Shown here piece by piece: positions 29,010 through 44,834 of a DNA stretch of 44,887 nucleotides (positions within the stretch are counted from its first letter, which is position 1; the number at the start of each line of letters is the position of its first letter). Under the pieces are notes generated by a model. That model searched no databases. It was given only the letters and a program-made list of their open reading frames with translations, and was not told the DNA's origin. The stretch lies in sequence record NC_073081.1. The stretch is one strand, 5' to 3'. A program made the position numbers and the translations under genes. Source of the stretch: Escherichia phage vB_EcoS_Sponge.

Positions 29010-29060
29010 GTGTAGTGTAAATATATTGAATAGTTATGCAGATTTCGTGCATAAACCAAA

Positions 29061-29161: not shown

Positions 29162-29165
29162 GCAC

Positions 29166-29433: not shown

Positions 29434-29760
29434 ATGAAAGCGATTATCTGGAATTACGCAATGGCGATGGCGAAGGCACAAGAAGCGGCGGAGTTCGCCG
29501 GTGAAGGAGCGGAAGCGGTCGAAAGACTATCGGCAGCGTGGTCCGTTGTTCGCGTCACGCAGCAGGCCATCGCCTGTATGCTGGAGCGCCGCTTCGACAC
29601 GATGGCGGAGATCCAGCCGTTGGCGAACGCAATCCAGGACTACGCGCTTGCATTTGCCCGTGAGCGCCTGGCGTATCGCTTCGGGGTCGGTGAGACGGCA
29701 GCGACAAACATCGCCCGGATTAAAGCCCAGCGCGAACTATTCGCCCAGCTTGCGAAATAA
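29434..29760 (+). CDS. hypothetical protein
   Basis: 108 aa from ATG 29434 (GAGGA SD); track start 29377 is TTG inside the repeat region. Confidence 0.45.
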   Translation: MKAIIWNYAMAMAKAQEAAEFAGEGAEAVERLSAAWSVVRVTQQAIACMLERRFDTMAEIQPLANAIQDYALAFARERLAYRFGVGETAATNIARIKAQRELFAQLAK

Positions 29761-29769
29761 GGGGCCAAA

Positions 29770-30039
29770 ATGGACCGCAGACGAGCTAAACAGCTTTCGT
29801 GGCATATTCCACTGCATTGCATACGAATATTGGCTAAGAATGCGATTGAGGGTGATTCTGTGTTCTGGAGCTATCGCGACGATGTGAAGCCACTAACGCA
29901 GACTCGCTATCTGCACCAGTTCGCCAGGGAGCACGGATTCGCCGTCAAAACATCCTTGCAACCAATTGGCATCCGTATTACATTACGCCGGAAGCCCGCC
30001 GTTGAGCGGGTAGGCAAACACTGGAGACTGAGCAAATGA
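29770..30039 (+). CDS. hypothetical protein
   Basis: 89-aa ORF; contains an internal GCAACCAAT copy (29958-29966). Confidence 0.4.
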   Translation: MDRRRAKQLSWHIPLHCIRILAKNAIEGDSVFWSYRDDVKPLTQTRYLHQFAREHGFAVKTSLQPIGIRITLRRKPAVERVGKHWRLSK

Positions 30040-30179
30040 CACCAGCACTAATGGCGGGATTCTCGCAGAAGTTTATTTCTGTTGATGCCTGCATAGCAGA
30101 TTATGAGATGGACGGCATCGCTACTGTATGCGATGGCGACACGAAAACTGCCGATGAGATTGAGGAGACAGAGCAATGA
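30036..30179 (+). CDS. hypothetical small protein (47 aa)
   Basis: ATGA-coupled to flanking genes on both sides; acidic; under track cut-off. Confidence 0.3.
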   Translation: MTPALMAGFSQKFISVDACIADYEMDGIATVCDGDTKTADEIEETEQ

Positions 30180-30733
30180 AATTACTATTCCGCCGCAAAT
30201 CGGACGGGCGCATTCTTAAGCCGATACAGACCCTGGACGCATACGTGCGCCTACAACAACCGGCAAACAAAAAAGTATTCCGCGCGCCAACAAGCACGCT
30301 GCCGCAGTTCTTCACGGTACACGCCCACGATATCGAGCGCGGAGATGTGCTGCGTGATATTCGCGACGGCAGTATGTGGATCGTCGAGTATGTCGGGCTT
30401 CATGGCCTGCGTATGCAATCCCGCAAGGATGGCGTAGCCGGTATGACTTACTTCGGCCTCGTAAATTACGAGCGAGTGGGTCGCAAATACTGCCTTCGTG
30501 ACCGCCAGCCGCATGAGCGCGTTGAGTTCCGCAAGTCACAGCCAGCCTACGCAACCTACGACTCCCACCAGGTGCAGGCGAGGATGAAACGCGCCGCGCA
30601 CGAAATCGTCAATCGCTTTGATGCCGTGACGAATGCGCAACGCCATGCGCAGGAATACGGCGTCGGATTCATCCGGGTGGAACAAGACGGCAGCATGAAA
30701 GCCATCGACCCGCGCTCGGTGATTCTGAAATGA
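30176..30733 (+). CDS. hypothetical protein
   Basis: 185-aa ORF, translationally coupled (ATGA) at both ends. Confidence 0.45.
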   Translation: MKLLFRRKSDGRILKPIQTLDAYVRLQQPANKKVFRAPTSTLPQFFTVHAHDIERGDVLRDIRDGSMWIVEYVGLHGLRMQSRKDGVAGMTYFGLVNYERVGRKYCLRDRQPHERVEFRKSQPAYATYDSHQVQARMKRAAHEIVNRFDAVTNAQRHAQEYGVGFIRVEQDGSMKAIDPRSVILK

Positions 30734-30876
30734 GCGCGTCTATCCGTGATATGCTGATGCATAACCGCTTTGAGGTAGGCGGTCGGGTATTTCGCAATTA
30801 CTTCGTGGCGCGTGCATGGGCGCGCCATATTGGCAAACCGGAAGGGGCAATTCGATGTTATACGTCTTCGCGGTAG
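30730..30876 (+). CDS. hypothetical small protein (48 aa)
   Basis: ATG 30730 overlapping upstream stop; basic protein. Confidence 0.3.
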   Translation: MSASIRDMLMHNRFEVGGRVFRNYFVARAWARHIGKPEGAIRCYTSSR

Positions 30877-30956
30877 TATGTGGCGGTAGTCTGGCGGCCC
30901 TGGTGCTGTTGGCGTCGGTTATTAGTCTGGTTAAATACCTATGGGGCAGATTATGA
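30855..30956 (+). CDS. small hydrophobic membrane peptide (33 aa)
   Basis: MLYVFAVVCGGSLAALVLLASVISLVKYLWGRL; GAAGGGG SD; overlaps neighbours. Confidence 0.25.
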   Translation: MLYVFAVVCGGSLAALVLLASVISLVKYLWGRL

Positions 30957-31240
30957 TTCATGATGTGATTTATTGGTTTGGTTTGATCTGCGGGCTGTGC
31001 CTGCTTACCGCGGTGCTGGTGGGCGTCCTGATGTTCGTAGTATGGCCCGCCGTGGAGGCCGCCAGCATTACCCGCATGACGTTCGAGATCTACAAGCGCC
31101 GTGGAATAACGGAGCACCCGACCAGGCTTCGTATGTGGTGGCTATGGTACCGGGATATGATAGGCGGTCGAACATTCGAAGCCGTCAGATCGGGAGGATG
31201 GGAGTGGAAAGGCGTCGGCAAGTGGTCCATTTTCGATTAA
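30953..31240 (+). CDS. membrane protein (2 predicted TM segments)
   Basis: 95 aa from ATG 30953; hydrophobic segments WFGLICGLCLLTAVLVGVLMFVVW. Confidence 0.4.
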   Translation: MIHDVIYWFGLICGLCLLTAVLVGVLMFVVWPAVEAASITRMTFEIYKRRGITEHPTRLRMWWLWYRDMIGGRTFEAVRSGGWEWKGVGKWSIFD

Positions 31241-31257
31241 TTATGCAAGCGTGATAT

Positions 31258-31292
31258 AGTCCCAGTGAGATAAAACTTACTGGGACTTTTTT
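31258..31292 (+). terminator. strong hairpin + T6 immediately upstream of holin start codon
   Basis: Stem agtcccagt/actgggact (31258-66 / 31279-87), 12-nt loop, T-run to 31292; ATG at 31293 with no SD. Confidence 0.55.
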
Positions 31293-31583
31293 ATGGATAA
31301 GCTAAACGAGTGGTTATTCGCCCTTGCGTGTCTTGCTGGCGGCTTCGTAGGCGCACGCATTCATGGCGAGGCAACGAAAGGGCCGTTGAACTTCGTTTTA
31401 TATGTCGTAGTTGGCTTCCTGTGTGCCATATTTGGCGCACCGGCTATTGCCGAGTGGGCTGGTTTGTCGGGGGAGCGCACTGTCGCCGGTTTGGGCTTCG
31501 TAACCGCAATCTTCTGGATGCCAATCGCCGACCGGATCAGGGAGACTATTGCGTCGTTCCGACTTCCGGGGGGTGCAAAATGA
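31293..31583 (+). CDS. holin-like membrane protein (3 predicted TM segments)
   Basis: 96 aa, three hydrophobic segments and charged C-terminus; directly upstream of endolysin. Confidence 0.55.
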   Translation: MDKLNEWLFALACLAGGFVGARIHGEATKGPLNFVLYVVVGFLCAIFGAPAIAEWAGLSGERTVAGLGFVTAIFWMPIADRIRETIASFRLPGGAK

Positions 31584-31825
31584 TTATCTCCGTCCTGTTG
31601 TTTGTTATCATCGGGGCTTCGTCCCTGTTTAACGTGTATGCGCCGTCCGTCCGGGATGGCATTTTCGGTCGGGTGCTGTATCTGTTAACGGCAATGGTCT
31701 GTATTATCGGATTGCTGCAAACAGGCGACGTATCGGATACCACCTGGACCGCGTTAATCTGGCTGTTTGCATTGCGCACCCTGCGTAATGCTGTTTTGAA
31801 TGGGGTAAAACATGCGATTCAGTGA
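31580..31825 (+). CDS. second holin/antiholin-like membrane protein
   Basis: 81 aa, ATGA-coupled to the holin gene; hydrophobic segments; overlaps endolysin start. Confidence 0.45.
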   Translation: MIISVLLFVIIGASSLFNVYAPSVRDGIFGRVLYLLTAMVCIIGLLQTGDVSDTTWTALIWLFALRTLRNAVLNGVKHAIQ

Positions 31826-32303
31826 CAACGGTCTACGATTTACGGCAGCATGGGAGGCTTTCAGCCCGGTGCCGTATTTCGCGACCAAGAAAGAGCAGGC
31901 CCGCGGCCTGTACACCTGGGGCTATGGTCACACCGGAACTAACCCGCCACGAAGCATTACCCGTGCAGAAGCGCTGGAACTGCTCAAGCGAGATGTGGCG
32001 TATGCCGAGGACTGGGTGAACAAATACGCACATCCGAGCATTAACCAGGCGCAATTCGACGCGCTGGTGGACCTGGTAATCAATGCCGGTCCTGGTCCGA
32101 TCGTACCGGATGACGTCGCGAATGATTTCGATGATGCGGTGCGACTGGGCGACTGGGCGAAGGTACGAGCTACTCTGCCGCAGTTCCGCAAGCAAGGTGG
32201 CGAAGTGCTTAAGGGTCTGGTGCGCCGTGCAATCGGCAGGCAAGCGCTATTCGATGGTAAGCAGTGGGACGTTGCCGAGCGAATCGGGCGTAACGCAGCA
32301 TAA
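31812..32303 (+). CDS. endolysin, GH24 phage lysozyme family
   Basis: Conserved pattern NGL..L...EAF....Y....GLYTWGYGHTG and NQAQFDALVDLVINAG with C-terminal RRAIGRQALF, as in P22/T4-type lysozymes. Confidence 0.8.
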   Translation: MRFSDNGLRFTAAWEAFSPVPYFATKKEQARGLYTWGYGHTGTNPPRSITRAEALELLKRDVAYAEDWVNKYAHPSINQAQFDALVDLVINAGPGPIVPDDVANDFDDAVRLGDWAKVRATLPQFRKQGGEVLKGLVRRAIGRQALFDGKQWDVAERIGRNAA

Positions 32304-32319
32304 TACGAGGTAACACAGT

Positions 32320-32487
32320 ATGTTAAAAAGCATTCTTGATCATAACGCTGACGCGCTCGCCGCGCTGGCTAAAACCGAAGACCCTGGCGCACGCGCTATC
32401 ATCGCGGACTCTATCAACCACGCTGGGGTCTTCGATGCGAAGCTGCCAAGCCCGCCACCGCCGGAAGAACCCGGCCCCGCAGCGTAA
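32320..32487 (+). CDS. hypothetical small protein (55 aa)
   Basis: ATG 32320 to TAA 32485-32487; Pro-rich C-terminus; followed by terminator; under track cut-off. Confidence 0.3.
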   Translation: MLKSILDHNADALAALAKTEDPGARAIIADSINHAGVFDAKLPSPPPPEEPGPAA

Positions 32488-32494
32488 ACAATCA

Positions 32495-32518
32495 AGCCCG
32501 GATAATACCGGGCTTTTT
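32495..32518 (+). terminator. intrinsic terminator after lysis cassette
   Basis: agcccgg-ataata-ccgggct followed by TTTTT. Confidence 0.7.
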
Positions 32519-32582
32519 ATTGCTTGACTCGCAACCAACATAGACGCCATACTGCAACCAACCAATGAGAGGAGTAATCAAG

Positions 32583-32663
32583 ATGGCACGTAAAGATATT
32601 TGGGTATTAGCGATCTGGACCACCGCGGCTTTTATCGGTATGGTTATTTGCGAATTGCTATAA
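32583..32663 (+). CDS. 26-aa hydrophobic peptide
   Basis: MARKDIWVLAIWTTAAFIGMVICELL; strong SD AGGAG 8 nt upstream; two GCAACCAA motif copies just upstream. Confidence 0.35.
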   Translation: MARKDIWVLAIWTTAAFIGMVICELL

Positions 32664-32724
32664 CCCGCCGCAATATGGACCGTGGTATATTGTCCTCGGT
32701 CCCATAATCAGGAAGTGGATTAAT

Positions 32725-33867
32725 ATGCACCCGCAAACTAAAATCACCGACGAGCAATTGATCGCCGAGTTGCAATCCGGCACTACCGCGAAAGAGATTG
32801 CGAAGAAGTACGGTCTTTCCCTACGAAATGTCTACATGCGCAAAGCCCGCCTGTCGAAGAAAGGTATTGGTCATGGTAACGATGCCGTAATCCGTAAGCG
32901 CGTTGCCGATGGCTTCGGCGTTAAGCGCGTATCCGCCCTGGTGCGCGGCAATGGCGAAGAGGTCATGTCGTGGGTTATCACTGAGCAGGACAAGGAGCGC
33001 CAGCTTGAAGCCATGCGCGCTGTTGTCGAGGGCATGAACAGCGAAATCACACCGGCAGCACCAGTAAGCGCCCCGCCAGTCCCGATCCAGGCGCTCGACC
33101 TACTCAACCTATACACTGTGTCAGACTTCCACCTGGGCATGTTGGCCTGGGGCGAGGAGACTGGCGAAGACTGGGATATGGCGATTGCCGAAGACCTGTT
33201 CTACCGCTGGTTTGTCGAAGCCTTCGCACGCGCACCGGACGCAGGCACTGCCGTAATTAATATCCTCGGAGATATGGCCCACTTTGACAGCCTTGACGCC
33301 GTCACACCGGCAAGTGGTCACGTACTGGACGCGGATACCCGCTACCAGAAACTGGTCCGCTACATGATCCGCATGGTGCGCAACGTGGTAGACCTGGCGC
33401 TGCAAAAACACCACAAAGTCAAACTGCTAATCGTCCAGGGTAATCATGACGAGTCAGGCATGATTTGGCTTGCTGAGATGTTCAATACCCTGTATGAGAA
33501 CGAGCCACGCGTCGATGTGGACACGTCCCCGGACGTCTACAAAATGGTGCAGCACGGTAAGACCACGCTATTTTTCCACCACGGACACAAAGCGCGATTC
33601 GATGTTATCGAGCAGGTTATGATCGCTAAATTTAGACAGGCATTCGGGTCGAGCGAATACAGCTACGCGCACGTAGGCCATTTGCACCACCAGAAGATTG
33701 TTGAATCCCGCAACATGATTGTTGAACAGCACAGGACGCTCGCAGCGAAAGACGCCTACGCCAGTCGTGGCGGATGGATGTCCGGTCGCAGCGCAAACGT
33801 CATCACCTATAGCGCCAACTACGGCGAAGTAGCGCGCTTAACCATTAGCCCGGAAATGTTGAAATGA
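32725..33867 (+). CDS. HTH domain fused to calcineurin-like metallophosphoesterase (Mre11/SbcD-type motifs)
   Basis: N-terminal HTH-like TAKEIAKKYGLSLRNVYMRK; phosphoesterase motifs DFH, GDMAHFD, GNHD, HHGH, GHLH in canonical order; 380 aa. Confidence 0.6.
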   Translation: MHPQTKITDEQLIAELQSGTTAKEIAKKYGLSLRNVYMRKARLSKKGIGHGNDAVIRKRVADGFGVKRVSALVRGNGEEVMSWVITEQDKERQLEAMRAVVEGMNSEITPAAPVSAPPVPIQALDLLNLYTVSDFHLGMLAWGEETGEDWDMAIAEDLFYRWFVEAFARAPDAGTAVINILGDMAHFDSLDAVTPASGHVLDADTRYQKLVRYMIRMVRNVVDLALQKHHKVKLLIVQGNHDESGMIWLAEMFNTLYENEPRVDVDTSPDVYKMVQHGKTTLFFHHGHKARFDVIEQVMIAKFRQAFGSSEYSYAHVGHLHHQKIVESRNMIVEQHRTLAAKDAYASRGGWMSGRSANVITYSANYGEVARLTISPEMLK

Positions 33868-34076
33868 TCAGACAAGTATTCATGAGCACGCAGGCCACCC
33901 GCCTGAAAGAACTACGCAAACAACTCGAAGGCTTGCGCCGATTTGAACGAACGGCAGCGGCAGTCGGAATGTCGATGGACGAGAGGATCGAAATACTGTC
34001 GCAAATACGCTACACAGAAGGCGCGATAAGAGAAGTACAAAGCATGTTAACCCGATACTACGGGCGCGACGTTTAA
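33864..34076 (+). CDS. hypothetical small protein
   Basis: 70-aa ORF, ATGA-coupled to upstream gene; predicted coiled coil. Confidence 0.4.
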   Translation: MIRQVFMSTQATRLKELRKQLEGLRRFERTAAAVGMSMDERIEILSQIRYTEGAIREVQSMLTRYYGRDV

Positions 34077-34094
34077 ACCGCATAGCCTGCCGAT

Positions 34095-34123
34095 TTGGTG
34101 GGCTTTTTTGTGCCTGTTATAAT
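34095..34123 (+). promoter_or_regulatory. putative extended -10 promoter upstream of terminase genes
   Basis: TGtTATAAT (34115-34123) with TTGgtg 17 bp upstream (34095-34100). Confidence 0.3.
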
Positions 34124-34193
34124 CCCACTTAGATGGCAGGGCCGTCTCCTATGTTGCCGATGGTCGGCGCATATGAACAAAAGGGCTTATATT

Positions 34194-34745
34194 ATGGCAG
34201 AAATCAAAGTTAAGGGCCGACGCGCCAAACTGGACGGACGAGTAGCAGTAACCCCGCGCCGTAAACCAGGCGAGCAAACAGAGCATACCAATCTCGGACC
34301 TGAAATCGAGTACGGAAAGCGCCGTAAAGGCGGCAAATGTGGACGACCTACTGACTACCGATCCGTTTACTGCGACCAGCTTCGCCGCTATTTTGCCGAC
34401 GCCGACGCCTGGCAGGTCAACTACTCCGATAAAGGCGCTGCGCAAGTAATCCCTCGCAACAAAATGCCAACCTTCGGTCGATTTGCCGCGGAAATCGGTG
34501 TGGGCGTCGCTTGCCTGTATCGCTGGGCGCGCGCACATGAGGAGTTCGCCGAGGCGATGGCGGACGCGATGGAGTTGCAGAAAACCTTCCTGATGGAAGC
34601 TGGCGGCGTGACCATCGCGGCGGGCTTCGCGACCTTCCTGCTTAAAGCCAACCACGGCGTCCGCGACGATATCCAACTGGATGACGACGAAGATGATAAC
34701 GGCGATGTTGTTGTCGAACCTACCGGCAAAGGCCAGGGCGAATAA
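34194..34745 (+). CDS. terminase small subunit
   Basis: 183 aa immediately upstream of and TAATG-coupled to large terminase; basic N-terminus, HTH-like segment (GRFAAEIGVGVACLYRWARAHEEF), acidic C-terminus. Confidence 0.6.
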   Translation: MAEIKVKGRRAKLDGRVAVTPRRKPGEQTEHTNLGPEIEYGKRRKGGKCGRPTDYRSVYCDQLRRYFADADAWQVNYSDKGAAQVIPRNKMPTFGRFAAEIGVGVACLYRWARAHEEFAEAMADAMELQKTFLMEAGGVTIAAGFATFLLKANHGVRDDIQLDDDEDDNGDVVVEPTGKGQGE

Positions 34746-36130
34746 TGCGTAACTATGCGGCAGAACACCGCGCACTGGAACGCGCGATCGCAAAGCGCAA
34801 CAGACCACCACGCCCGACACGCGTTGCGCAGGCGGTGCGTCTTTACCAGCCTGATTGCCTACCGCACCAGGTTGAACTACTGCGGGACACGAAGACTAAA
34901 ATCCTCGGCCTGTGCTCTGGCTTCGGCGGCGGCAAGTCATGGGTCGCAGCCCGTAAGGTAATCCAGCTTTTAACCCTGAACCCTGGTCATGATGGCATCG
35001 TTACAGAGCCGACTATTCCACTCCTGGTTAAGATCATGTACCCGGAATTGGAAAAGGCTTTCGACGAGGCTGGCTTCCGGTGGAAGTTCAACAAGCAGGA
35101 CAAGATCTATAGCGTTCTGGTGAAAGGCAAATGGACTCGCGTTATCTGTGAGTCGATGGAGAACTATACCCGCCTGATCGGGGTTAACGCCGCGTGGATT
35201 GTTGCCGATGAGTTCGACACCACGAAGCAAGACGTCGCAATGGCGGCATACCACAAATTGCTAGGTCGTCTGCGTGCGGGCGTGGTCCGTCAGTTTGTCA
35301 TTGTATCCACGCCGGAAGGCTTCCGGGCAATGTATCAAATTTTCGAGGTGGAGAAGGATAGCCAGAAACGTTTGATCCGGGCGAAGACCACCGACAACCA
35401 CCATTTACCGGCAGACTTTATCGACACGCTGCGCAGTCAGTACCCGGCCAACCTGATTGATGCGTACCTGAACGGCCTGTTTGTTAACCTTACGTCGGGC
35501 GCGGTGTACAAGATGTTCAACCGCGAGGAGAACGCCAGCACCGAAGAAGTGCAGCCGGACGACACGCTGATTATCGGTATGGACTTTAACGTCACTAAAA
35601 TGGCGGCGGTCGTATACGTCCGACGGCAGCGAATCACAGAGAACAAGGAGTTCCGCGACGAGATTCACGCGGTGGATGAATTTGTGGACCTGTTCGACAC
35701 CCCGGCTATGATTGCGGCGATCGAGGAGCGCTACCCCGATCATTGTGCCGCCGGTCGTGTTGTCGTCTACCCGGATAGCAGCGGCAAATCCCGCAAGACG
35801 GTCAACGCGTCGTCGTCCGATATCGCGCAACTGGAAGATGCGGGCTTCAATGTGGAATATGACAGCGTTAACCCACCTGTGAAAGACCGATTGATCGCGA
35901 TGAATACGATGATGTGCAACTCGAAGGGCGTGCGCCAGTATTTTGTCAACCTGGATAAATGCCCTACACTAGCGAAATGTCTGGAACAGCAGGTTTACGA
36001 CCTGAAGAAAGGCGAGCCGGATAAAACTGCCGGTGTAGACCACATGAACGATGCCGCGGGCTACCCTATTGCGCACTTGTTCCCTGTGATTCGTCCGATC
36101 GCCGTTGTTCCAACCGTAGACTTCTACTAA
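34745..36130 (+). CDS. terminase large subunit
   Basis: Walker A GFGGGKS, Walker B WIVADEFD, C-terminal nuclease-like acidic residues; 461 aa; followed by portal gene. Confidence 0.85.
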   Translation: MRNYAAEHRALERAIAKRNRPPRPTRVAQAVRLYQPDCLPHQVELLRDTKTKILGLCSGFGGGKSWVAARKVIQLLTLNPGHDGIVTEPTIPLLVKIMYPELEKAFDEAGFRWKFNKQDKIYSVLVKGKWTRVICESMENYTRLIGVNAAWIVADEFDTTKQDVAMAAYHKLLGRLRAGVVRQFVIVSTPEGFRAMYQIFEVEKDSQKRLIRAKTTDNHHLPADFIDTLRSQYPANLIDAYLNGLFVNLTSGAVYKMFNREENASTEEVQPDDTLIIGMDFNVTKMAAVVYVRRQRITENKEFRDEIHAVDEFVDLFDTPAMIAAIEERYPDHCAAGRVVVYPDSSGKSRKTVNASSSDIAQLEDAGFNVEYDSVNPPVKDRLIAMNTMMCNSKGVRQYFVNLDKCPTLAKCLEQQVYDLKKGEPDKTAGVDHMNDAAGYPIAHLFPVIRPIAVVPTVDFY

Positions 36131-36141
36131 GGAAACCAACC

Positions 36142-37662
36142 ATGACCGTTAACGTTGACAACCAGCACCCGCTCTATGCGCGCATCTCGCCAGAGTGGAA
36201 AATGATCCGTGATTGTGTAGCAGGGGAGCGCGCCGTGAAGGCGTGCGGCCCCTTGTACCTGCCGCATCCAGCAAGCGGCGACACCACCGACCCGAAATCA
36301 CGGGCACGCTATAAGGCATATAAGCAACGTGCTGTCTTCCTGAACGCCACCGCCCGCACACTGAATGCACTATTAGGCGTGGCCTTCGCCAAGCCTGTGA
36401 GTATGGACCTTTCCGGGGCAATGGCTGACCTGATTGATGACGTAGACGGCAGCGGGATGCCACTGGCGCAACTCCTGCGCGGCGCTATGTCGGAAGTGCT
36501 GCAATCGGGCCGCGCTGGCTTTATGGTGGACTACGACCGCCAGGCTAACTTTGATGAACTGGGTAACGTAGTGCCGCAGACAGCCGCTGAAATGGCGACA
36601 CACCGCCCGCTTATCCGCTTGTACACGGCAGAACAGATCATCAACTGGCGGCAGACCCACGGTATTGACACGCTAATCGTGCTGAAGGAGACGGACGAAA
36701 TCAGCACCGAAGACCCGGACGACTTCGCAAACCACGAAGTAACGATCTGGACCGAGCTTCGCATGATTGCAGGTAAGGCCCACGCCCGCCGCTGGTTTTA
36801 CAACGCTGACACGTCCGAGGTGCAGATGGACTTGCCGCGAGGCTTCACCCGCACCGACCTTGTACCATTGGTGGATGCCTCCGGTAATGCGCTAACTCAA
36901 CTGCCATTTTGCTGGTGTGGCGCGGTGGACAACAACGCGACACCGGACGCCGCACCGCTGGCGGATATTGCGTCCATCAACATTAAGCACTACAACGCCG
37001 AAGCGGACGTCGCCGAGATTGCGCACATCGTGGGGCAACCTACCCTCATTGCGACTGGTCTTACCCAATCATGGGCGGACAAGAACCTGAAAGGCGGCAT
37101 CGCGCTCGGGGCAACTAAGGGCGTTATCCTGGGCCAGAACATGGACGCCAAACTGCTTCAGGCGGAGGAGCGCAACTTGTCTGTTGCCCTATGTGAGCGC
37201 CGAGAATTGCAAATGGCTAAACTGGGCGCGGCCCTGGTCGAGAAGGGGACCGCACCTAAGACGGCAACCGAGGCGGCCTATGATGCACAGACTGATAACA
37301 GTATCCTGTCACTGATTGCCGGTAACGTCGAGAAGGCTTTCAACCGTGCGCTGCAAATCGTCAAGCTGTTCACGGGCGACACCGCAGATCAACGCGTAAC
37401 GCTGAATAAGTTCTACACCGAAATCACGGTTGACGCACAGCTTATGACCGCAATGATGGCGGGTGTGCAGACTGGTACGGTCCGTCTGGCGGACTTTATC
37501 AAGTGGATGATGGCCCAGGGCGTTATTGATGACTCGCAAACCGTCGAGCAGGTGGAAGACGAACTGCGAAATCAGAATCCATTGCCTCAAATGTCCCCGG
37601 ATGCGGTAGAATCGACCGAAGAAGCCCCGGACGAGGTAGCGGACAATGGCGAAGACAATTAA
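36142..37662 (+). CDS. portal protein
   Basis: 506-aa ORF directly after large terminase; acidic C-terminus; synteny. Confidence 0.75.
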   Translation: MTVNVDNQHPLYARISPEWKMIRDCVAGERAVKACGPLYLPHPASGDTTDPKSRARYKAYKQRAVFLNATARTLNALLGVAFAKPVSMDLSGAMADLIDDVDGSGMPLAQLLRGAMSEVLQSGRAGFMVDYDRQANFDELGNVVPQTAAEMATHRPLIRLYTAEQIINWRQTHGIDTLIVLKETDEISTEDPDDFANHEVTIWTELRMIAGKAHARRWFYNADTSEVQMDLPRGFTRTDLVPLVDASGNALTQLPFCWCGAVDNNATPDAAPLADIASINIKHYNAEADVAEIAHIVGQPTLIATGLTQSWADKNLKGGIALGATKGVILGQNMDAKLLQAEERNLSVALCERRELQMAKLGAALVEKGTAPKTATEAAYDAQTDNSILSLIAGNVEKAFNRALQIVKLFTGDTADQRVTLNKFYTEITVDAQLMTAMMAGVQTGTVRLADFIKWMMAQGVIDDSQTVEQVEDELRNQNPLPQMSPDAVESTEEAPDEVADNGEDN

Positions 37663-38749
37663 TCAATATATGGCGGATCGAATGATCCGCCGTCACATCT
37701 TCACCCAGCGCCTGAGTAATGACCAGGCGCGGAGGGTGTTGGCTATGTGGGAGAAGTTCCGGCCCACGTTACTGGGTAAGCTGACCGAGTTACTTGATGG
37801 TAAAAAGTCCATGAACAACAAGGCACTTACCACTCTGTTAACGCAACTCGACAAGACCGTCAAAACGGAACTGCGCACCGAGTTTAAGGCGTTGGCTGAA
37901 AGCCTTCAGGAGTTCGCCGACACCGAGGCCGATTATCTCGCCGACACATTAACGGCAGCGATCCAGCCGGTGGTCGCCGTACCGGCGGTCGAGGTGGTTG
38001 GCGTAGTGACCGGTGCGCAGATCGCAGCGACGGCAATGAAAAACCCGTTCCAGGGTAATACGATGATGCAATGGCCTGACTCACTTTCTGAGTGGACCAG
38101 GACGCAGATCGGTAATCAGGTGCGGGCGGGATTCATCCAGGGCAAGCCAACGATGGAAATTATCGCGGACGTGAGGCGCTCGCTAGGCGGTCGTAGTGCG
38201 CAAGCCATCTCAAGCGTTGTTAAGTCCGCAGTAAACCACTATGCGGCGACTGCCCGCGAACTAATGGTAAAAGCAAATGACGATATTCTCGAGGGTCGCC
38301 AATGGTTATCTACATTGGACACACATACTTCTCCCATGTGCCAGCTACGCGATCGCCTGTTTTATCCGGTTGATGTTACTCCCGACACCAAAGGAAAGCG
38401 CGGCGGGAAAGTGGTGGCTGGATCACAATATGGCGCTGGTCCTGGCAAGCTGCATTATTGCTGCCGTTCGACGGAGACGTGGAAAGTCAAAGGTATGGAA
38501 GATTGGCCCAGTGGTAAGCGTCCGGCACTGAAGGCTGACGCAGGCAGATTGCTGAGCGAGCAGGTAGACGCGCAGACTGATTTCTTCTCATGGGTGCAGC
38601 GCCAGCCGCGCCATATCCTGGAGGAGTTATATGGAGTGCAACGCGCCGACCAGATTATGCGCGGCGTGAAAGTGCCGAAGATGTTTACCGATTCTGGCGA
38701 ACTGATGACTATTGCGCAGCTTAAAAACCGGGGGTTATGGCGTGATTAA
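37646..38749 (+). CDS. head morphogenesis / minor head protein
   Basis: 367-aa ORF overlapping portal end; position (portal to minor head to scaffold to capsid). Confidence 0.5.
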   Translation: MAKTINQYMADRMIRRHIFTQRLSNDQARRVLAMWEKFRPTLLGKLTELLDGKKSMNNKALTTLLTQLDKTVKTELRTEFKALAESLQEFADTEADYLADTLTAAIQPVVAVPAVEVVGVVTGAQIAATAMKNPFQGNTMMQWPDSLSEWTRTQIGNQVRAGFIQGKPTMEIIADVRRSLGGRSAQAISSVVKSAVNHYAATARELMVKANDDILEGRQWLSTLDTHTSPMCQLRDRLFYPVDVTPDTKGKRGGKVVAGSQYGAGPGKLHYCCRSTETWKVKGMEDWPSGKRPALKADAGRLLSEQVDAQTDFFSWVQRQPRHILEELYGVQRADQIMRGVKVPKMFTDSGELMTIAQLKNRGLWRD

Positions 38750-39071
38750 ATATGCAGCAATCGGACTGGTTATCGGTCTGGTGGTAGGATTCTGGCTAGG
38801 TGACTCCTATCGTGCTGGCGTAGTGGCGGAGGCGGCGCAAGAAGCGCAAGCCGAAGCCCAACGGCAGCAAACTAAAGTTATTGAGCGCTCCGTGCAGGCC
38901 GAACAAGCCCGCGACGTAGAATACCGGACTATAACGAAAGAGGTTGTTAAATATGTTACGCGCCCTAACCGCCCTGATTGTAGTTTTGATGCTGAGCGCG
39001 TGCGGATCAAGCAACGTGCCGTTGATGCCGCTAACGGAGTCGGCACTGCGTCCGCCGTGCAAGTTCGATAG
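38742..39071 (+). CDS. i-spanin (Rz-like)
   Basis: N-terminal TM segment IKYAAIGLVIGLVVGFWLG followed by charged coiled coil (AQEAQAEAQRQQ); GTG 38742 start assumed (TTG 38712 also in frame). Confidence 0.5.
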   Translation: MIKYAAIGLVIGLVVGFWLGDSYRAGVVAEAAQEAQAEAQRQQTKVIERSVQAEQARDVEYRTITKEVVKYVTRPNRPDCSFDAERVRIKQRAVDAANGVGTASAVQVR

Positions 39072-39183
39072 CCCGTCCGCAGACCCCGACGAGGATTTGA
39101 TGATTGACGTGAAAAATATGGAATGTGGGGCGAAGCTAAGGGCGCAGGTGCTGGAGTTGCAGCAAATAATTAAGGGGCCGTAA
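38953..39183 (+). CDS. o-spanin (Rz1-like lipoprotein), overlapping i-spanin in +1 frame
   Basis: Signal peptide with lipobox LSAC, Pro-rich mature region; starts inside the i-spanin gene and extends beyond it. Confidence 0.5.
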   Translation: MLRALTALIVVLMLSACGSSNVPLMPLTESALRPPCKFDSPSADPDEDLMIDVKNMECGAKLRAQVLELQQIIKGP

Positions 39184-39194
39184 TGGCCCCTTTT
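39174..39194. terminator. bidirectional intrinsic terminator
   Basis: ggggcc-gtaat-ggcccc followed by TTTT on + strand; convergent minus gene ends at 39197. Confidence 0.65.
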
Positions 39195-39196
39195 CG

Positions 39197-39961
39197 TTAG
39201 CGCGGAATGCCGCAAATCTCGTTAAGTGTTTTCACGTCCAGCGCCACTGCCGTGGATTTTGGCTTGTCCGGGTACGGGATGAATTGCTCGACTTCAGGCC
39301 ATGCCTTAATAAGCTTCTTGTCAGTATTGTGCAGGTCCAGTACACCGGTAACGGTGAGTTTGAACGCATCATACTTCGCGCGCAACTCGCGACGGGCCTT
39401 GTCGTTGCGGTCCAGGCGCTTACAGAAGTCATGATCTGCAGGGTAGTCTACGCGACCGCGAGGGAGATATATCGGCAGCGCTTTCCCGTCCTCGTCCACT
39501 TCGCACACTGACGCGAGCATAACTGCCTCGAACCCAGGAACGATATCGCCGAGATCAGGCGCTAGCTTATTCATATATTTCTCTTCCCAGTACCCGCGAT
39601 GTATGCGGTATTGGCGACCGTCGCCGCTCAATGACAAGGTGCGAACATTGCCGCCTGCGTTGATTTCAAAGGTTGCGTTATAGACGCTGCCGATACCCTT
39701 CGGGCGGTCGGAGTTATAACTATACGTCGCCTTGTTGGTGTATACGCTGACGCCGTACATCTGCGACTGGTCATCGCGGATTAACAGGATATGCTCGCGG
39801 AGCGCTGCGAACGTGCGAATGCCTTCCGGCATACAGTCCAGCGTGATTGCGTACGCCAGGTCGCGAGAGTCCATCATGATTGTTTTGGCTTCGGTAGCGA
39901 TTTCGTGGTCGCGCAGGATGTTAGCCAGAATCTGGTTTTTAATGTCTTTTGTCAGTCTCAT
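39197..39961 (-). CDS. hypothetical protein encoded antisense within the head module (moron-like)
   Basis: 254 aa from ATG 39961 (GAGGA SD); lone minus-strand gene between spanins and scaffold, own terminator; no recognisable motif. Confidence 0.5.
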   Translation of the reverse strand: MRLTKDIKNQILANILRDHEIATEAKTIMMDSRDLAYAITLDCMPEGIRTFAALREHILLIRDDQSQMYGVSVYTNKATYSYNSDRPKGIGSVYNATFEINAGGNVRTLSLSGDGRQYRIHRGYWEEKYMNKLAPDLGDIVPGFEAVMLASVCEVDEDGKALPIYLPRGRVDYPADHDFCKRLDRNDKARRELRAKYDAFKLTVTGVLDLHNTDKKLIKAWPEVEQFIPYPDKPKSTAVALDVKTLNEICGIPR

Positions 39962-40110
39962 TTTTGTGTCCTCGTTGTTGGTGTGCAACCAATATAGTGC
40001 AACCAATACGCGGATTGCAAGCGAATTTTGCGATTATTTTTATCGCTGATAATATTAGAAGCGTGAAGTCGAGCGGGTGGCCTGCTCTGCCACAATCCCA
40101 GGGGGATAGC

Positions 40111-40815
40111 ATGAAACTTACTAAAGCAGAATATGACGCGTTGCCGGAAGGTATGAAGGCGCTTTTTGTTGCCGATGGCGACGGGTATAAATCAACGTTC
40201 ATGACCGCAGAAGAAGTACAGGCGGAAATCAAGGGTCTGAAAGAAAACAACGCGAAGCTGGTGAGCGAGAAGAAAGCAGAAGCCGAACGCCGCGCCGAAG
40301 CTGAGCGCCTTGCGAAAGAGAAAGAGGAAGCCGCCGCGCGCAAAAATGGCGACCTCGAAGCGATCGATAAGTCCTGGAAGGATAAGTTTGCGAAACACGA
40401 AGCAGATACATCGGGAAAAATCGAAGCCTACCGCAAGCAGATCCACGACCTAACCATCGGCAGCGCTGCCAAAGACCTGGCATCGAAGCTATTCGGTAAG
40501 AATGCTGGCATCATGCAACGCCACGTAATGGACCGCCTGACGCTGGAAGACGGCGAAGATGGCAGCTTGAAAGTGCGTGTCTTGCAGGATGGCAAACCGT
40601 CCGCGCTGACTATGGAAGAGCTTGAAAAAGAGTTCCGTAATAACGCCGATTTTGCATCCGTCCTGGCAGGCACGCCAGCCGGTGGCGCGCCTAGCAAACC
40701 GACGCAGGTTGTCGAAGATGTGAAGTCGAAAATCACTATGGGCCACAGCTTCGGTATCACTGACCTTACGAAACAGGCAGGTGAAATCATCGCTAAGATG
40801 GGCGACGACGAGTAA
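40111..40815 (+). CDS. scaffolding protein
   Basis: 234 aa, highly charged, Ala/Glu/Lys coiled coil (AEAERRAEAERLAKEKEEAAARK); immediately upstream of major capsid gene; GGGGGA SD. Confidence 0.6.
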   Translation: MKLTKAEYDALPEGMKALFVADGDGYKSTFMTAEEVQAEIKGLKENNAKLVSEKKAEAERRAEAERLAKEKEEAAARKNGDLEAIDKSWKDKFAKHEADTSGKIEAYRKQIHDLTIGSAAKDLASKLFGKNAGIMQRHVMDRLTLEDGEDGSLKVRVLQDGKPSALTMEELEKEFRNNADFASVLAGTPAGGAPSKPTQVVEDVKSKITMGHSFGITDLTKQAGEIIAKMGDDE

Positions 40816-40820
40816 GCAGA

Positions 40821-40844
40821 TTGCCCGCGAAAGCGGGCAATTTT
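40821..40844 (+). terminator. hairpin attenuator between scaffold and capsid genes
   Basis: ttgcccgc-gaaa-gcgggcaa followed by TTTT. Confidence 0.5.
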
Positions 40845-40912
40845 GCGAGCGCGTAAATCTAAGGTAACATTAACGTCACTGGGCGAATGCTCACAACTCA
40901 AAGGATTTCGAT

Positions 40913-42013
40913 ATGTCTTTAACAGTGTTCCAGCGTAAACTCGTTACCGCGGTTACGCAAATGATCCCCGACAACCTGAACGTTTTCAACGCCGCCGCCA
41001 ATGGCGCTGTTGTTCTCGGTACTGGTGAAGTGCTGAAGGACGTTATTGAGAAAATGTCCGTAGGCTTGATCGCCAACCTCGTTACCGACCGTAACGCCTA
41101 CGCCCCTGTCGGCACTCCGGCAACCGCGAAAGTTCTGGCGCGTATGCTGACCAACTCGGTTAACCTTTCCGCAAAAGTGGGTCCGGTAGCAATCACTAAG
41201 GCTATGATGGCTAAGATCGAAACCAACGTTAACAGCGTTGCGGCTGAGATTGCGGCACAGGCTACTCAAGCGATTATGCTGCACTACCTGAAAGCTGGTA
41301 TCGGCGCAAGTAAAGCGGCGATCGAAAGCAACGCAGCGGCAAAATACACCCAACCGGCGCGCGTTGACGGCGTTGGCGGTCGTACCTTCCCGACCCTGGC
41401 AGACTTCCCGCTGGCGGCTTCTAAGTTTGGCGATCAGGCGTCTTTGATTAAGTCCTGGTTTATGGACGGCGTTACCTGGGCAAACTTCATTGCGTACCAG
41501 GCACTCCCTTCCGCTGAACAGGTATTCGCAATTGGCGATCTACAGGTAATGGGTGATGGCCTGGGCCGTCGATTCATTATCTCCGATGCCGCTGCCGATG
41601 CTATGGGCGCTGGTAACATGCTGGGTCTGGTTCCTGGCGCGGTTGCAGTTACCACCAACGGCCTCGATATGCTGGCGCAGGAGAAAGGCGGTAACGAGAA
41701 CATCGAACGCTGGTGGCAGGGCGAGTTCGACTTCAACGTGGCCGTTAAAGGCTACCGACTGAAGGCGTCCGCTCGTACCCCGATCGAAGGTGTGCGCTCG
41801 TTCAAACTGGACGATATTACCACTTCCGCTAACTGGGAACTGGACCAGGGCCAGGTAGACAACGCACCGGCAACCGTGCAGGACGTTGGCGCTGTGGGTG
41901 ATGGCGATACTAAAGGCCGTCGTAAGACCCAGGCCGCACAGGCAGTGCCTACCCGTCACATCAAGGAAACGGCTGGCGTACTGGTTACGCTGACTGCGAC
42001 TACCGCGTCTTAA
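40913..42013 (+). CDS. major capsid protein
   Basis: 366-aa ORF after scaffold, AAGGA SD, strong terminator downstream; typical size and position. Confidence 0.7.
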   Translation: MSLTVFQRKLVTAVTQMIPDNLNVFNAAANGAVVLGTGEVLKDVIEKMSVGLIANLVTDRNAYAPVGTPATAKVLARMLTNSVNLSAKVGPVAITKAMMAKIETNVNSVAAEIAAQATQAIMLHYLKAGIGASKAAIESNAAAKYTQPARVDGVGGRTFPTLADFPLAASKFGDQASLIKSWFMDGVTWANFIAYQALPSAEQVFAIGDLQVMGDGLGRRFIISDAAADAMGAGNMLGLVPGAVAVTTNGLDMLAQEKGGNENIERWWQGEFDFNVAVKGYRLKASARTPIEGVRSFKLDDITTSANWELDQGQVDNAPATVQDVGAVGDGDTKGRRKTQAAQAVPTRHIKETAGVLVTLTATTAS

Positions 42014-42032
42014 CGGGCGCAAATCCCAAAGG

Positions 42033-42056
42033 GGCGGGCTTATGCCCGCCTTTTTT
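42033..42056 (+). terminator. strong intrinsic terminator after major capsid gene
   Basis: ggcgggc-ttat-gcccgcc followed by T6. Confidence 0.75.
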
Positions 42057-42071
42057 ATAGGAGTGAATACA

Positions 42072-42572
42072 ATGTATGGTGACCCGCAAACCTTTATTGA
42101 TTATGCCGCTGCGCGAGGCGTTGAAGTCACGCTGAGCGATGCAACGCGACACCTTACCGTCGCTAATGACTTCCTTAACGGCATCAACTGGATCGGAGAA
42201 CCCGCAGACCAGACTGGCATCGACGCATGGCCCCGCATCAATTACCAATCGGACGGTAAGCCGGTGCGCGACACGCTCACTGAAGTTGTGGCAGTAGTGC
42301 CTGCAGGGCAGATCGTAGATTTTGCATCAATCCCCATTGCCGTCGAGCAAGCCGTTTACAGGTTGGCGATGTTGGTGGCGGACGAGGTCGATATTTCTCC
42401 TGTTGGCAGTGGTAAGGAGACTATCCGTGAAACTGTCGGCCCGATCACGATGGAATATGACCCTGCGACGATTGGTAGCGGTGTCTCGTTCCCGTGGTGG
42501 GATGGCTTGCTGGGCCACTGGATTGGCTTAGACGGCAACGCAGCGGGTAATTTTGATGTATTCCGGGGGTAA
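42072..42572 (+). CDS. head-tail connector / neck protein (hypothetical)
   Basis: 166 aa from ATG 42072 (AGGAG SD); position between capsid and tail genes. Confidence 0.45.
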   Translation: MYGDPQTFIDYAAARGVEVTLSDATRHLTVANDFLNGINWIGEPADQTGIDAWPRINYQSDGKPVRDTLTEVVAVVPAGQIVDFASIPIAVEQAVYRLAMLVADEVDISPVGSGKETIRETVGPITMEYDPATIGSGVSFPWWDGLLGHWIGLDGNAAGNFDVFRG

Positions 42573-42676
42573 TATGAATCCTGCATTACTGGCGGCTATT
42601 ATCGCCGCAAATACTAAACGCCAACCAGAACCGGAGCCAGCACCAGAACCAGAACCACCGGTACAGGAGGATGATA

Positions 42677-43030
42677 ATGGCGGGCTTTAATTACGCAGGA
42701 TTAAAGCGGAAAGTGAATCCGCTGATTAAAAAGTTCGGCATGACCGTTACGGTTACGCGTCCTGGGTCGGTTGACCGCGTAGACGGCGACGAAGTGATAA
42801 TCCCGCCAACGTCGTTCGACGTCATCGGTCTTCGAGAGGAGTACAAGCCGAGCGAGATCGACGGGACGCGTATCGTTGCCGGTGATGTGAAGTTTTTGTG
42901 TCAGGCCGTCAAGCAGGTAAAGGTCGGGGATTTGGTTAGCCTGAACAATACAGACTACCGGGTTATCAATCCCAACCCCCTGCAACCGGCGGGCCAGACC
43001 ATGCTGTTTCAACTACAGCTAAGGGGCTAA
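42677..43030 (+). CDS. head-tail joining protein (hypothetical)
   Basis: 117 aa from ATG 42677, 7 nt after AGGAGG; synteny only. Confidence 0.45.
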   Translation: MAGFNYAGLKRKVNPLIKKFGMTVTVTRPGSVDRVDGDEVIIPPTSFDVIGLREEYKPSEIDGTRIVAGDVKFLCQAVKQVKVGDLVSLNNTDYRVINPNPLQPAGQTMLFQLQLRG

Positions 43031-43031
43031 C

Positions 43032-43625
43032 GTGGCTGAAGTCTACTCGTTCGCCGCCACTATTGCTACGTGGGTGGATAAGACGAAGGAGAACAACGAC
43101 AAGGCGGTGCGGGCGTACGGTATGCAAATACTCGGACGCCTGATCGAGATCTCCCCAGTGGGCGACCCCCGCCGGTGGAAAATTAACAGGGCTTACGCGC
43201 TCGCCCGCCAGCACGCAAACAAGGTGAACGCCGCACAGCGTCGCAAGAATGGCGGCAAACTGAAGCGTGGACAGAAGAAGCACGCAAGTGTGCTGGTATC
43301 ATTCAAGACTAAAAACGGCAACGTCACGTTCCGCCAGCGTGGCTGGGCTGCGAAGAATTACACCGGCGGACGCTTCCGGGGAAACTGGCAGGTTACGTTC
43401 GACCGCCCGGCTGTTGGCGCTATTGACCGCGTGGACAAGGCCGGAACGGCAACATTAGCCGCTGGGCGTGAAGTGTTAGCGCACTATGATTCGAGTGAAT
43501 ACGGGTCGATCTGGTTTACTAACAACGTGCCATACGCGCAGCGACTTGAGTATGGCTGGAGTAAACAAGCGCCAGCGGGGATTGTTCGCGTCGTAGCGGC
43601 AGAAATTAATTCGAAGGTGAAATAA
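43032..43625 (+). CDS. neck / tail completion protein (hypothetical)
   Basis: 197-aa ORF with GTG start after AAGGGG; synteny only. Confidence 0.45.
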   Translation: MAEVYSFAATIATWVDKTKENNDKAVRAYGMQILGRLIEISPVGDPRRWKINRAYALARQHANKVNAAQRRKNGGKLKRGQKKHASVLVSFKTKNGNVTFRQRGWAAKNYTGGRFRGNWQVTFDRPAVGAIDRVDKAGTATLAAGREVLAHYDSSEYGSIWFTNNVPYAQRLEYGWSKQAPAGIVRVVAAEINSKVK

Positions 43626-44047
43626 TGAGCAATACCGCAATCCGCAAAGCGCTTAACAGCGTGGTTGAAGAGTTATCGGCAAGCCTGAGCACAAGCCAGC
43701 GTCCGATTAGGGTTAACTGGGAGAACGTGAGCGGCGACCACGCAAACGGCAGCGGTGTCTACCTGGAGCCGTACCTGCTACCGGCCCCGACCCAGTTTGT
43801 GGGCTTACAGCAGAAGGGTCGGATCTATGCTGGCGTATATCAGGCTGCCGTGGTGTTTCCCGCAGGAACTGGAACACAGTACGCGAGCGAACTGGCGGAC
43901 GCCATCGCTACGTCTGATAAGTGGCTGGCGGTGAAGATTTCCGGTGCGTCATTTCAGCTTCAGGACGCGCCATACACCAGTTCAGTGATTGAAGACGTTG
44001 ATCGCGCCCGCATCGTGGTTACAGTACCCTACACCTGTTGCGCCTGA
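43625..44047 (+). CDS. tail terminator-like protein (hypothetical)
   Basis: 140-aa ORF TAATG-coupled to upstream gene; immediately before major tail gene. Confidence 0.45.
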   Translation: MSNTAIRKALNSVVEELSASLSTSQRPIRVNWENVSGDHANGSGVYLEPYLLPAPTQFVGLQQKGRIYAGVYQAAVVFPAGTGTQYASELADAIATSDKWLAVKISGASFQLQDAPYTSSVIEDVDRARIVVTVPYTCCA

Positions 44048-44108
44048 TTTGGCGCTATTCTGCGCGTGCTGTATCATTAAACCGTATATCTAAACAGGAG
44101 CGTTCATT

Positions 44109-44834
44109 ATGGGTTATCAACTTCCTAACGGGTCTAGCGTCCAGATTGGGTCCGTACTGGGCAACGGCATCGCTGTTACGGCAGCTACCAACGCCGCCGC
44201 GTCGATCTCCGACCTTACGCAAGGTTGCGTAATTACCTGCGCGGAGTCTCACGGTCTGGCTGTTGGCGACGTTGTTATGTTCACTAAAACCCCGTGGGTC
44301 CGTGCGCTGAACCGCGCGTTCATCGTTGGTAAAGTATCGAGGAACGACGTTACACTGGCGCGCTTCGATACTCAAGACGCCACCAAATACCCGACCGGTG
44401 CTTTCGGCGTAGGCACACCAGGCGAGGTGGTGAAGGTGTCGAGCTTTATCGACTTCCCGTATATCACTAACGTTGCTGTGTCGGGTGGCGATCAGCAGAC
44501 GACTACCTTCCAGCCGTTGCAGGTGAATACCGCGATCAGTCTGAATACCACGAAAAACCCGTTGGTCCAGACCTACACTTTCACCCACGACGAAGAAGAC
44601 CCGATCCGCCCGATTCTGGAAGACCTGGACGACACACAGAAAACCACTGTGATTAAGTTCACTAACCCGGCAGCGGCAAGCGGCAAAGGTGAGATCCGCA
44701 TTTACCCGGCTAAGGTGTCTTTCCAGAAGATTCCATCGGCTGAAGTAAACAACGTGGAGACGGTGGAGTCCACTCTGACCATGCAATCCGATATGGTTAT
44801 TTACCGTAAGGACCTGGTTGAAGCGCTGTCGTAA
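44109..44834 (+). CDS. major tail protein
   Basis: 241-aa ORF with AGGAG SD, followed by strong terminator; lies just upstream, across the window junction, of the G/G-T chaperone and tape measure genes. Confidence 0.65.
   Translation: MGYQLPNGSSVQIGSVLGNGIAVTAATNAAASISDLTQGCVITCAESHGLAVGDVVMFTKTPWVRALNRAFIVGKVSRNDVTLARFDTQDATKYPTGAFGVGTPGEVVKVSSFIDFPYITNVAVSGGDQQTTTFQPLQVNTAISLNTTKNPLVQTYTFTHDEEDPIRPILEDLDDTQKTTVIKFTNPAAASGKGEIRIYPAKVSFQKIPSAEVNNVETVESTLTMQSDMVIYRKDLVEALS

Follow-up and report, generated by a model that had tools for sequence, protein, structure and literature searches.

The gene analysed here is the only one to run leftward in the head module of Escherichia phage vB_EcoS_Sponge, and it belongs to the family known as nmad5; the window referred to throughout is the whole stretch of DNA that was analysed, 44,887 nucleotides (nt) of sequence record NC_073081.1, which is that of a Dhillonvirus (HK578-like siphophage of E. 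coli). The original prediction had placed the gene at 39197-39961 with a product of 254 amino acids (aa), and this is correct, as translation from the ATG at 39959-39961 gives a protein beginning MRLTK, the N-terminus found in every homologue. The longest open reading frame (ORF) called here starts at a TTG and runs 39197..40006 on the minus strand (269 aa), but this was ruled out as a true N-terminal extension given that the homologues all begin MRLTK and that the added stretch crosses the promoter. The gene had also been described as the sole minus-strand gene of the 26.3-44.9 kb block, and when the RefSeq annotation of phage slur05 was mapped onto the window, every other mapped gene from 26295 to 44831 was indeed on the plus strand. 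The features of the locus are the following:

39172..39192, both strands: hairpin terminator, common to the converging TerL-portal-MuF-Rz/Rz1 (rightward) and nmad5 (leftward) transcripts

39197..39961, minus strand: nmad5 coding sequence (CDS), 254 aa, matching Pfam PF18757 (Nmad5) over residues 1-253

39962..39975, minus strand: junction of the empty cargo slot, the CCAACAACGAGGA region, between the promoter block and the Shine-Dalgarno (SD) sequence of nmad5; the bounds of the slot are the CACACCAACA promoter block and this SD

39969..39973, minus strand: SD sequence GAGGA, 7 nt before the ATG (TCCTC on the plus strand), kept in all relatives

39976..39996, minus strand: 21-nt block TATATTGGTTGCACACCAACA, made up of the -10 hexamer TATATT (39991-39996), the proximal motif copy and the leader

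39985-39993 and 39999-40007, plus strand: two copies of the motif GCAACCAAT, presumed operator sites of a phage DNA-binding protein

39991..40020, minus strand: sigma-70-like leftward promoter, with TTGCAA at 40015-40020, an 18-nt spacer and TATATT at 39991-39996

Whilst the product had been thought to have no recognisable motif, this proved wrong: it matches PF18757 from end to end (E 2.9e-59, 201 bits against a gathering threshold of 27), residues 1-253 aligning to positions 1-206 of the 206 in the profile, and it also matches PHROG 1965, which is labelled 'unknown function'. Searches with Nmad5 of NCBIfam and PADLOC gave zero matches. The positions conserved among 159 family representatives are R2, L3, G104, T213, L217, W221, P222, E223, P229, L246, N247, G251 and P253; all of these apart from G104 and P229 are signature residues of PF18757, each conserved at 83-99% in the representatives and every one of them present in the window protein. 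Most of them fall into a conserved C-terminal module, T213-x3-L217-x3-W221-P222-E223 ... L246-N247-x3-G251-I/L-P253, inside which K216 directly precedes the invariant L217. The family name stands for nucleotide modification associated domain 5 and was taken from the association of its members with such genes. No such association is seen here, but it is a contextual feature and membership of PF18757 by sequence therefore stands. On these matches the lone leftward gene is identified as the Dhillonvirus orthologue of nmad5, a real gene that was already known and no novel insertion.

The 1.7 kb around nmad5 matches 157 phage records, nearly all of them Escherichia or Shigella Dhillonvirus, and at least 80% of the locus is covered in 136 of the 157, with a nucleotide identity of 80-99%. 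Of the phage records, 155 have a portal of the Dhillonvirus type (at least 90% identity) and 148 have Nmad5 (at least 60% identity), so that the gene is near-universal in the genus. The ratio of non-synonymous to synonymous substitution rates (dN/dS), calculated from 13 alleles, is 0.12 overall, 0.17 in the middle of the gene and 0.056 in the C-terminal third, values that indicate purifying selection. The closest allele of all (99.2% identity) is in MG065648.1, an unannotated 35-kb record titled 'Campylobacter phage A144', which is probably a Dhillonvirus sequence carrying the wrong host label.

The locus has the parts of an independent leftward transcription unit. Its own SD and the pair of GCAACCAAT copies upstream were both part of the original prediction and are present as listed above. 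The TTGCAA/TATATT site is the sole promoter-like site in 38600-40400, and whilst it would be weak on the scan alone, in every relative the promoter and motif block stands ahead of whichever gene comes first in the leftward unit, be it a cargo gene or nmad5, and it is because of this conservation that the promoter is regarded as supported. At the other end, the hairpin at 39172-39192 has the form AAGGGGCC-GTAAT-GGCCCCTT, with 8 pairs of which 6 are G-C, and a folding energy of about -22 kcal/mol on either strand (z -2.3 and -2.7); it is kept in 11 relatives, in which the bottom of the stem shows a compensatory change from A-T to G-C, and it overlaps the stop codon of Rz1. Its tails are TTTTCGTT on the plus strand and AAUUAUUUGC on the minus strand. 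Of the bidirectional terminator that had been proposed, the hairpin is thus conserved, and action in both directions is plausible though stronger rightward. Together the sigma-70-like promoter, the SD and the terminator hairpin support an independent unit as predicted from the DNA. A literature search for expression or transcriptome data from Dhillonvirus found none, and an Rfam scan of the whole window returned no RNA family. The Rz/Rz1 spanin pair that shares the terminator (38742-39183) follows the MuF-like head gene and is some 6.5 kb from the holin and endolysin (31.3-32.3 kb), unlike in phage phiES15, where the spanins adjoin the endolysin; Rz1 (38953-39183) has the lipobox LSAC, overlaps Rz out of frame, and contributes its final codons to the shared hairpin.

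Between the promoter block and the SD is a slot that is empty in the window. The spacer from scaffold to nmad5 measures 148-150 bp in the window, slur05, SM_S22 and three IMG/VR contigs; in other relatives the slot is occupied by one of at least four unrelated genes (109, 170, 135 and 53 aa), three of the four being followed by a GGGGCGAAAGCCCC hairpin. The cargo gene of phage EP23 is flanked by the 13-nt direct repeat CCAACAACGAGGA, and recombination between the two copies would yield exactly the sequence of the window. Searches of the cargo genes of the relatives against Pfam, PHROGs and PADLOC gave nothing useful except for the 170-aa gene of EP23, which matches phrog_3007 ('RusA-like') and, below threshold, DNA_pol3_beta_2 (sliding clamp); depending on the record, the 170-aa gene is called 'RusA-like' or 'DNA pol III beta'. 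Among the relatives retrieved, which are referred to by L numbers, cargo genes were seen upstream of nmad5 in L001 (4303-4632), L002 (4344-4856), L012, L014 and L016.

The description of nmad5 as a moron-like insertion can be upheld only in part. As with classical morons (lom and bor of lambda, or the cassettes of HK97-type phages), a predicted promoter and a conserved hairpin terminator of its own are set inside a foreign operon of late structural genes, and the neighbouring slot, whose boundaries are fixed, is either empty or holds one of at least four genes that are not related to each other. What does not stand is strain variability. When presence and absence were compared in related phages, about 148 of the 155 records carried nmad5, and in contrast to classical morons the gene is fixed in the genus, under purifying selection (dN/dS as above) and a member of an old family of early, replication and recombination regions. 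The part that is polymorphic among close relatives is the adjacent cargo slot, and it is this slot, empty in the window, that the comparison identifies as the swappable moron-like element.

The position of nmad5, on the minus strand between Rz/Rz1 and scaffold, is the MuF | scaffold junction of the head module. Phage phiES15, which has a related head module, has nothing inserted at this junction, and in Pectobacterium phage Pappous it is filled by seven small genes and one tRNA; the leftward unit of Dhillonvirus therefore appears to be a deep-time insertion at a hot spot that has become fixed in the genus. It is highly improbable that Nmad5 is a structural or head-assembly protein, a role suggested by its location alone, with the MuF-like head morphogenesis gene on one side and the scaffold gene on the other; the gene is on the opposite strand, its own promoter carries a motif found mainly in early and replication intergenic regions, the same junction is without a gene in phiES15, deletion mutants are viable (PMC11846954), and homologues elsewhere are in replication, recombination or early regions.

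It is the homologues in other phages that point to where the gene came from. Seven contigs of a different phage group (L003 and L020-L025) encode replication proteins 47-67% identical to those of the window and in the same order, and here Nmad5 is inside the replication operon, between a homologue of the 230-aa protein of the window (p230) and a DUF2800-type exonuclease, with a single-stranded DNA-binding protein (SSB), PolA and a SNF2 helicase downstream. The window has three small ORFs at the corresponding place. As nmad5 is within the replication module of these related phages, the Dhillonvirus gene is best read as a relocated early-type gene from the replication operon and not as a strain-specific moron. 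Further contexts are similar in kind: in L027 Nmad5 follows genes for an amino-acid:DNA transferase (ADDT) and a 5-hydroxymethyldeoxyuridine (5-hmdU) kinase (HMUDK), near PolA; in L028 it is beside a PD-(D/E)XK nuclease, a RecT-like protein and an SbcC-like ATPase; and in L029 beside a T7-like helicase-primase, PolA and a 5'-3' exonuclease. In the lambdoid phage HK542 (L032, NC_019769; 3695-4318) an Nmad5-like gene is the first after N in the pL operon, before cIII, Erf and Abc2, and the C-terminal third of this lambdoid type of protein is 33% identical; an Nmad5-like stretch is also present, unannotated, in records of Stx1 and Stx2 phages. Neither lambdoid nor Stx phages are known to hypermodify their DNA.

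The C-terminal motif is kept across phages of Escherichia, Pseudomonas, Vibrio, Bordetella, Edwardsiella and an alphaproteobacterium. In M6/SN1-like Pseudomonas phages Nmad5 heads a thymidine-hypermodification cassette (PMC9476957). The proteins of these phages share with that of the window the N-terminus MRLT and the C-terminal T-x3-L-x3-WPE ... LN-x3-G(L/I)P, and the Pseudomonas phage matches cover residues 160-253 at 37-40% identity; they differ in being some 40-50 aa shorter, the Dhillonvirus protein having an insert in its central sheet (residues ~115-160). The surroundings differ too, as in M6/SN1-like phages Nmad5 is upstream of PolA with a 5-hmdU kinase, aGPT-Pplase, radical SAM (rSAM) and pyridoxal phosphate (PLP) enzymes beside it, whereas the window has none of these and its nmad5 is detached from the polymerase region. 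Judged from gene order, the common denominator of all these contexts is the early replication/recombination region, with base modification only a subset, and Nmad5 is a conserved, non-essential family of phage proteins that normally travels with replication and recombination genes.

The motif GCAACCAAT occurs in 15 exact copies in the window where 0.58 are expected, a number reached in 0 of 100 shuffles, and 13-14 of the 15 copies are non-coding. One copy of the pair at nmad5 overlaps the -10 hexamer and the other is within the promoter spacer; L018, a relative with an Nmad5 only 65% identical, still has the pair ahead of nmad5. Other sites are in the divergent region at 26.1 kb and ahead of several genes of the replication region and the tail-fibre gene. 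Furthermore the block TATATTGGTTGCACACCAACA has exactly two copies in the window, at 29400-29420 on the plus strand and 39976-39996 on the minus strand, with 0 expected. The motif would thus be a genome-wide regulatory element, the predicted operator of a phage DNA-binding protein, and nmad5 would be wired into its circuit; because the promoter of nmad5 is overlapped by a motif concentrated in early and replication intergenic regions, expression in the early or middle phase is anticipated.

The other copy of TATATTGGTTGCACACCAACA precedes a plus-strand gene at ~29434-29760 (106-108 aa, function unknown). Co-regulation of this gene with nmad5 is probable, and the relocation of nmad5 may have been the occasion on which the block was duplicated. 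A candidate for the GCAACCAAT-binding regulator is the 109-aa helix-turn-helix (HTH) protein encoded at 26295-26624 on the plus strand, which resembles sigma-70 region-4 and HTH_23 domains, is called 'transposase' in relatives, and is encoded just upstream of the helicase-primase gene beside the motif-carrying divergent promoter region. Nmad5 itself was considered as the binding protein and is unlikely to be so, as L003 has Nmad5 without enrichment of the motif and the HTH protein fits better. Six copies of GCAACCAAT are in a gene-free stretch of 534 bp right after the helicase-primase gene (28900-29433), a region that also contains a 33-nt direct repeat, its two copies 54 bp apart (28888-28920 and 28942-28974), and, at 29065-29172, clustered GCGGGACA repeats; in its make-up the stretch resembles an origin of the iteron type or a hub of regulation. 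At 14542-14561, between two minus-strand genes, there is a near-perfect palindrome, GCAACCAAT-AGG-TTGGTTGC, which suggests that the motif-binding protein may dimerise, binding inverted half-sites at some loci and direct repeats elsewhere. The 7-mer core CAACCAA is present in 11-16 copies against ~2.5 expected (4- to 6-fold) in L020-L025, IMG/VR contigs which share the replication module of the window, but it is not enriched in L003; the pairing of regulator and motif seems to predate the genus yet not to be universal.

The original prediction also suggested a role in host interaction, exclusion or anti-defence, and here published genetics of two other Dhillonvirus phages, SM_A8 and SM_S22, are directly relevant. 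Yamashita et al. 2025 (Commun Biol 8:290; PMC11846954) mapped escape from the defence protein Tmn to the nmad5 mutation K216E (K296E in SM_S22) and found that its reversion restores sensitivity to Tmn, that deletion of nmad5 is viable and gives no escape, leaving Tmn sensitivity unchanged in a delta-anti-Tmn background of SM_S22, and that the gene is toxic to E. coli and could not be cloned. The window protein is 87% identical to Nmad5 of SM_A8 (PP920553, 5047-5811) and SM_S22 (PP627283), and the HNTDKKLIKAWPE block containing K216 is identical in all three, as is the HNTDKKLIKAWPEVEQFIP block. In both phages the gene is in the same place as in the window, on the minus strand between Rz/Rz1 and scaffold, and encodes 254 aa; SM_S22 has the empty-slot layout and the same promoter and motif block, whilst SM_A8, unlike the window, has a cargo gene upstream of nmad5. 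The differences in the protein amount to ~13% of residues and are mostly between 49 and 148. The 334-aa 'nmad5' annotated in SM_S22 (L035; 2006-3010) is an over-called start, ruled out as a real extension since homologues start MRLTK and the extra 80 residues cross the promoter and run antisense into the scaffold gene; K296 is therefore K216. The anti-Tmn gene was considered as a neighbour of nmad5 and rejected, being ORF35 of SM_S22 where nmad5 is CDS6. There is thus a link to defence in the form of the K216E escape and the dispensability of the gene, but since deletion neither kills the phage nor lets it escape, nmad5 is an escape locus and not a demonstrated anti-defence gene.

It has been assumed, from the family name and in PMC11846954, that Nmad5 is a DNA base-modification enzyme or the essential cofactor of one, and that Tmn senses the modification. 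The cassettes of M6/SN1-like phages (PMC9476957) and the ADDT and 5-hmdU kinase genes ahead of Nmad5 in L027 are in keeping with this idea, which we nevertheless consider improbable. Neither the window nor slur05 has a gene for HMUDK, aGPT-Pplase, ADDT or a hydroxymethylase, the only methylases being of the Dam type; Nmad5 is present in the lambdoid and Stx phages; and Dhillonviruses are comparatively sensitive to type I and type II restriction (PMC8594841). Sensitivity to Tmn after deletion is also hard to square with Tmn sensing a modification made by Nmad5. The conserved positions of the 159 representatives include no catalytic constellation of His, Asp and Cys. An AlphaFold2 (AF2) model built from a 30-sequence alignment, with a predicted local distance difference test (pLDDT) of 75.6 and a predicted template modelling score (pTM) of 0.71, begins with three helices at the N-terminus, followed by a central sheet interrupted by an insert of low confidence, a long helix (178-209), short helices (214-227) and a tethered C-terminal helix (243-250). 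No structural similarity of this model to any enzyme or solved fold was found, and a profile search against PDB chains found no relative (best E 0.23). Because catalytic residues and hypermodification genes are missing and the phages are sensitive to restriction, 'DNA modification enzyme' was rejected as the default, and as a label for Dhillonvirus Nmad5 it is unsupported.

The explanation that we favour, and think probable, is that nmad5 is a relocated gene of the replication set, expressed in the early or middle phase, and that its product is a non-catalytic binding protein which engages Tmn through its C-terminal module. The gene would have moved from the replication operon into a small leftward unit at the MuF | scaffold junction, consisting of a sigma-70-type promoter for host RNA polymerase overlapped by two copies of GCAACCAAT, an optional cargo slot, nmad5 and the shared hairpin terminator, and it would be expressed with the early and middle genes and not with the head genes around it. 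The protein would serve in binding or as an adaptor, its N-terminal part being helical, its centre a beta sheet and the C-terminal module its working surface, and the partner would be a conserved component of host or phage. Wild-type Nmad5 would engage Tmn productively, and K216E would bind Tmn without activating it and block activation by a second trigger, so that the point mutant escapes while the deletion does not; we infer this model of Tmn binding from the published genetics.

There is a precedent in the T-even phages. According to a 2026 preprint, RIIB of T2, an early protein associated with the replisome, activates Tmn directly, and one residue is enough to separate binding from activation (PMC13001434). 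In T2/T4 as in Dhillonvirus, Tmn escape maps to a single phage protein in which one residue change abolishes defence, and the early, replisome-associated and non-essential RIIB has its likeness in a non-essential Nmad5 that tends towards replication/recombination modules and is predicted to be expressed early. The two systems differ in that nonsense mutants of RIIB escape Tmn and the nmad5 deletion does not, and in that direct binding and sufficiency are established for RIIB only; no relationship between the two proteins was seen in sequence or structure, though without direct comparison to RIIB. A bolder version, which can be put forward only tentatively, is that Nmad5 is a widespread non-enzymatic early protein of a fold not seen before, whose invariant C-terminal module is recognised by the membrane NTPase Tmn; Nmad5 would then be for siphophages the counterpart of RIIB in T-even phages, K216E would turn it from an activator into a dominant decoy, and the leftward unit would be an early-promoter exchange slot that supplies counter-defence genes.

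An explanation that shares the timing and the non-catalytic binding of the one we favour, and differs only in the partner, is that Nmad5 is a host-directed early accessory or anti-defence protein that disables a conserved host factor and has no role in the replication machinery of the phage itself. Gam, Abc2 and Ral are host-directed proteins from the same kind of genomic position. Nmad5 of HK542 is in the N-cIII interval beside the anti-RecBCD protein Abc2, in lambdoid phages that have no phage polymerase or helicase as partner, and the preservation of the C-terminal motif in phages of such diverse hosts would fit a conserved host target. The predicted promoter of its own, the position beside a hypervariable cargo slot, which is typical of accessory genes, and the toxicity and dispensability of the gene (PMC11846954) are likewise as expected of such a protein. 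Yet wild-type Nmad5 is not known to inhibit any defence system, its deletion left Tmn sensitivity unchanged, PADLOC and NCBIfam gave no match, and the strong purifying selection, with the functional site the most conserved, is not the arms-race signature common in anti-defence genes; on balance this explanation seems rather unlikely.

Several points also weigh against the reading of nmad5 as a relocated, early-expressed gene for a Tmn-engaging protein. The direction of relocation follows from parsimony only, and the link to replication and recombination is a tendency and not a rule, as phage C130_2 has the gene ahead of its holin and endolysin. The predicted sigma-70-type promoter matches at 9/12 positions, and 1.5 sites like it would be expected by chance in 38600-40400, and the timing depends on a motif whose binding protein is only a candidate. 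The model of the protein is moderately confident, with three segments below a pLDDT of 50, and the missing catalytic residues and fold matches are negative evidence only. Finally, binding of Nmad5 to Tmn, or to any partner, is purely a proposal, the authors who attempted to clone the gene having failed.

The gene itself is already known, as a member of a named family whose Dhillonvirus orthologue has published genetics, and the new points are modest: nmad5 has probably moved out of the replication operon, it shares a motif-controlled promoter with a second gene, the cargo slot beside it can be placed precisely, and an enzymatic role is unsupported. Since nothing in the sequence, the predicted structure or the gene content backs a modification enzyme, the label should be corrected and Tmn escape read as the recognition of a protein and not as the sensing of modified DNA. 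The relocation of nmad5 and its wiring to GCAACCAAT provide a testable prediction of its timing. The cargo slot, which has direct repeats at its borders, lends itself to engineering in Dhillonvirus phages for therapy and is a place in these phages to look for new accessory or counter-defence genes; if the counterpart of RIIB that we tentatively envisage were true, the at least four uncharacterised cargo families in the leftward unit of the relatives would be counter-defence genes.

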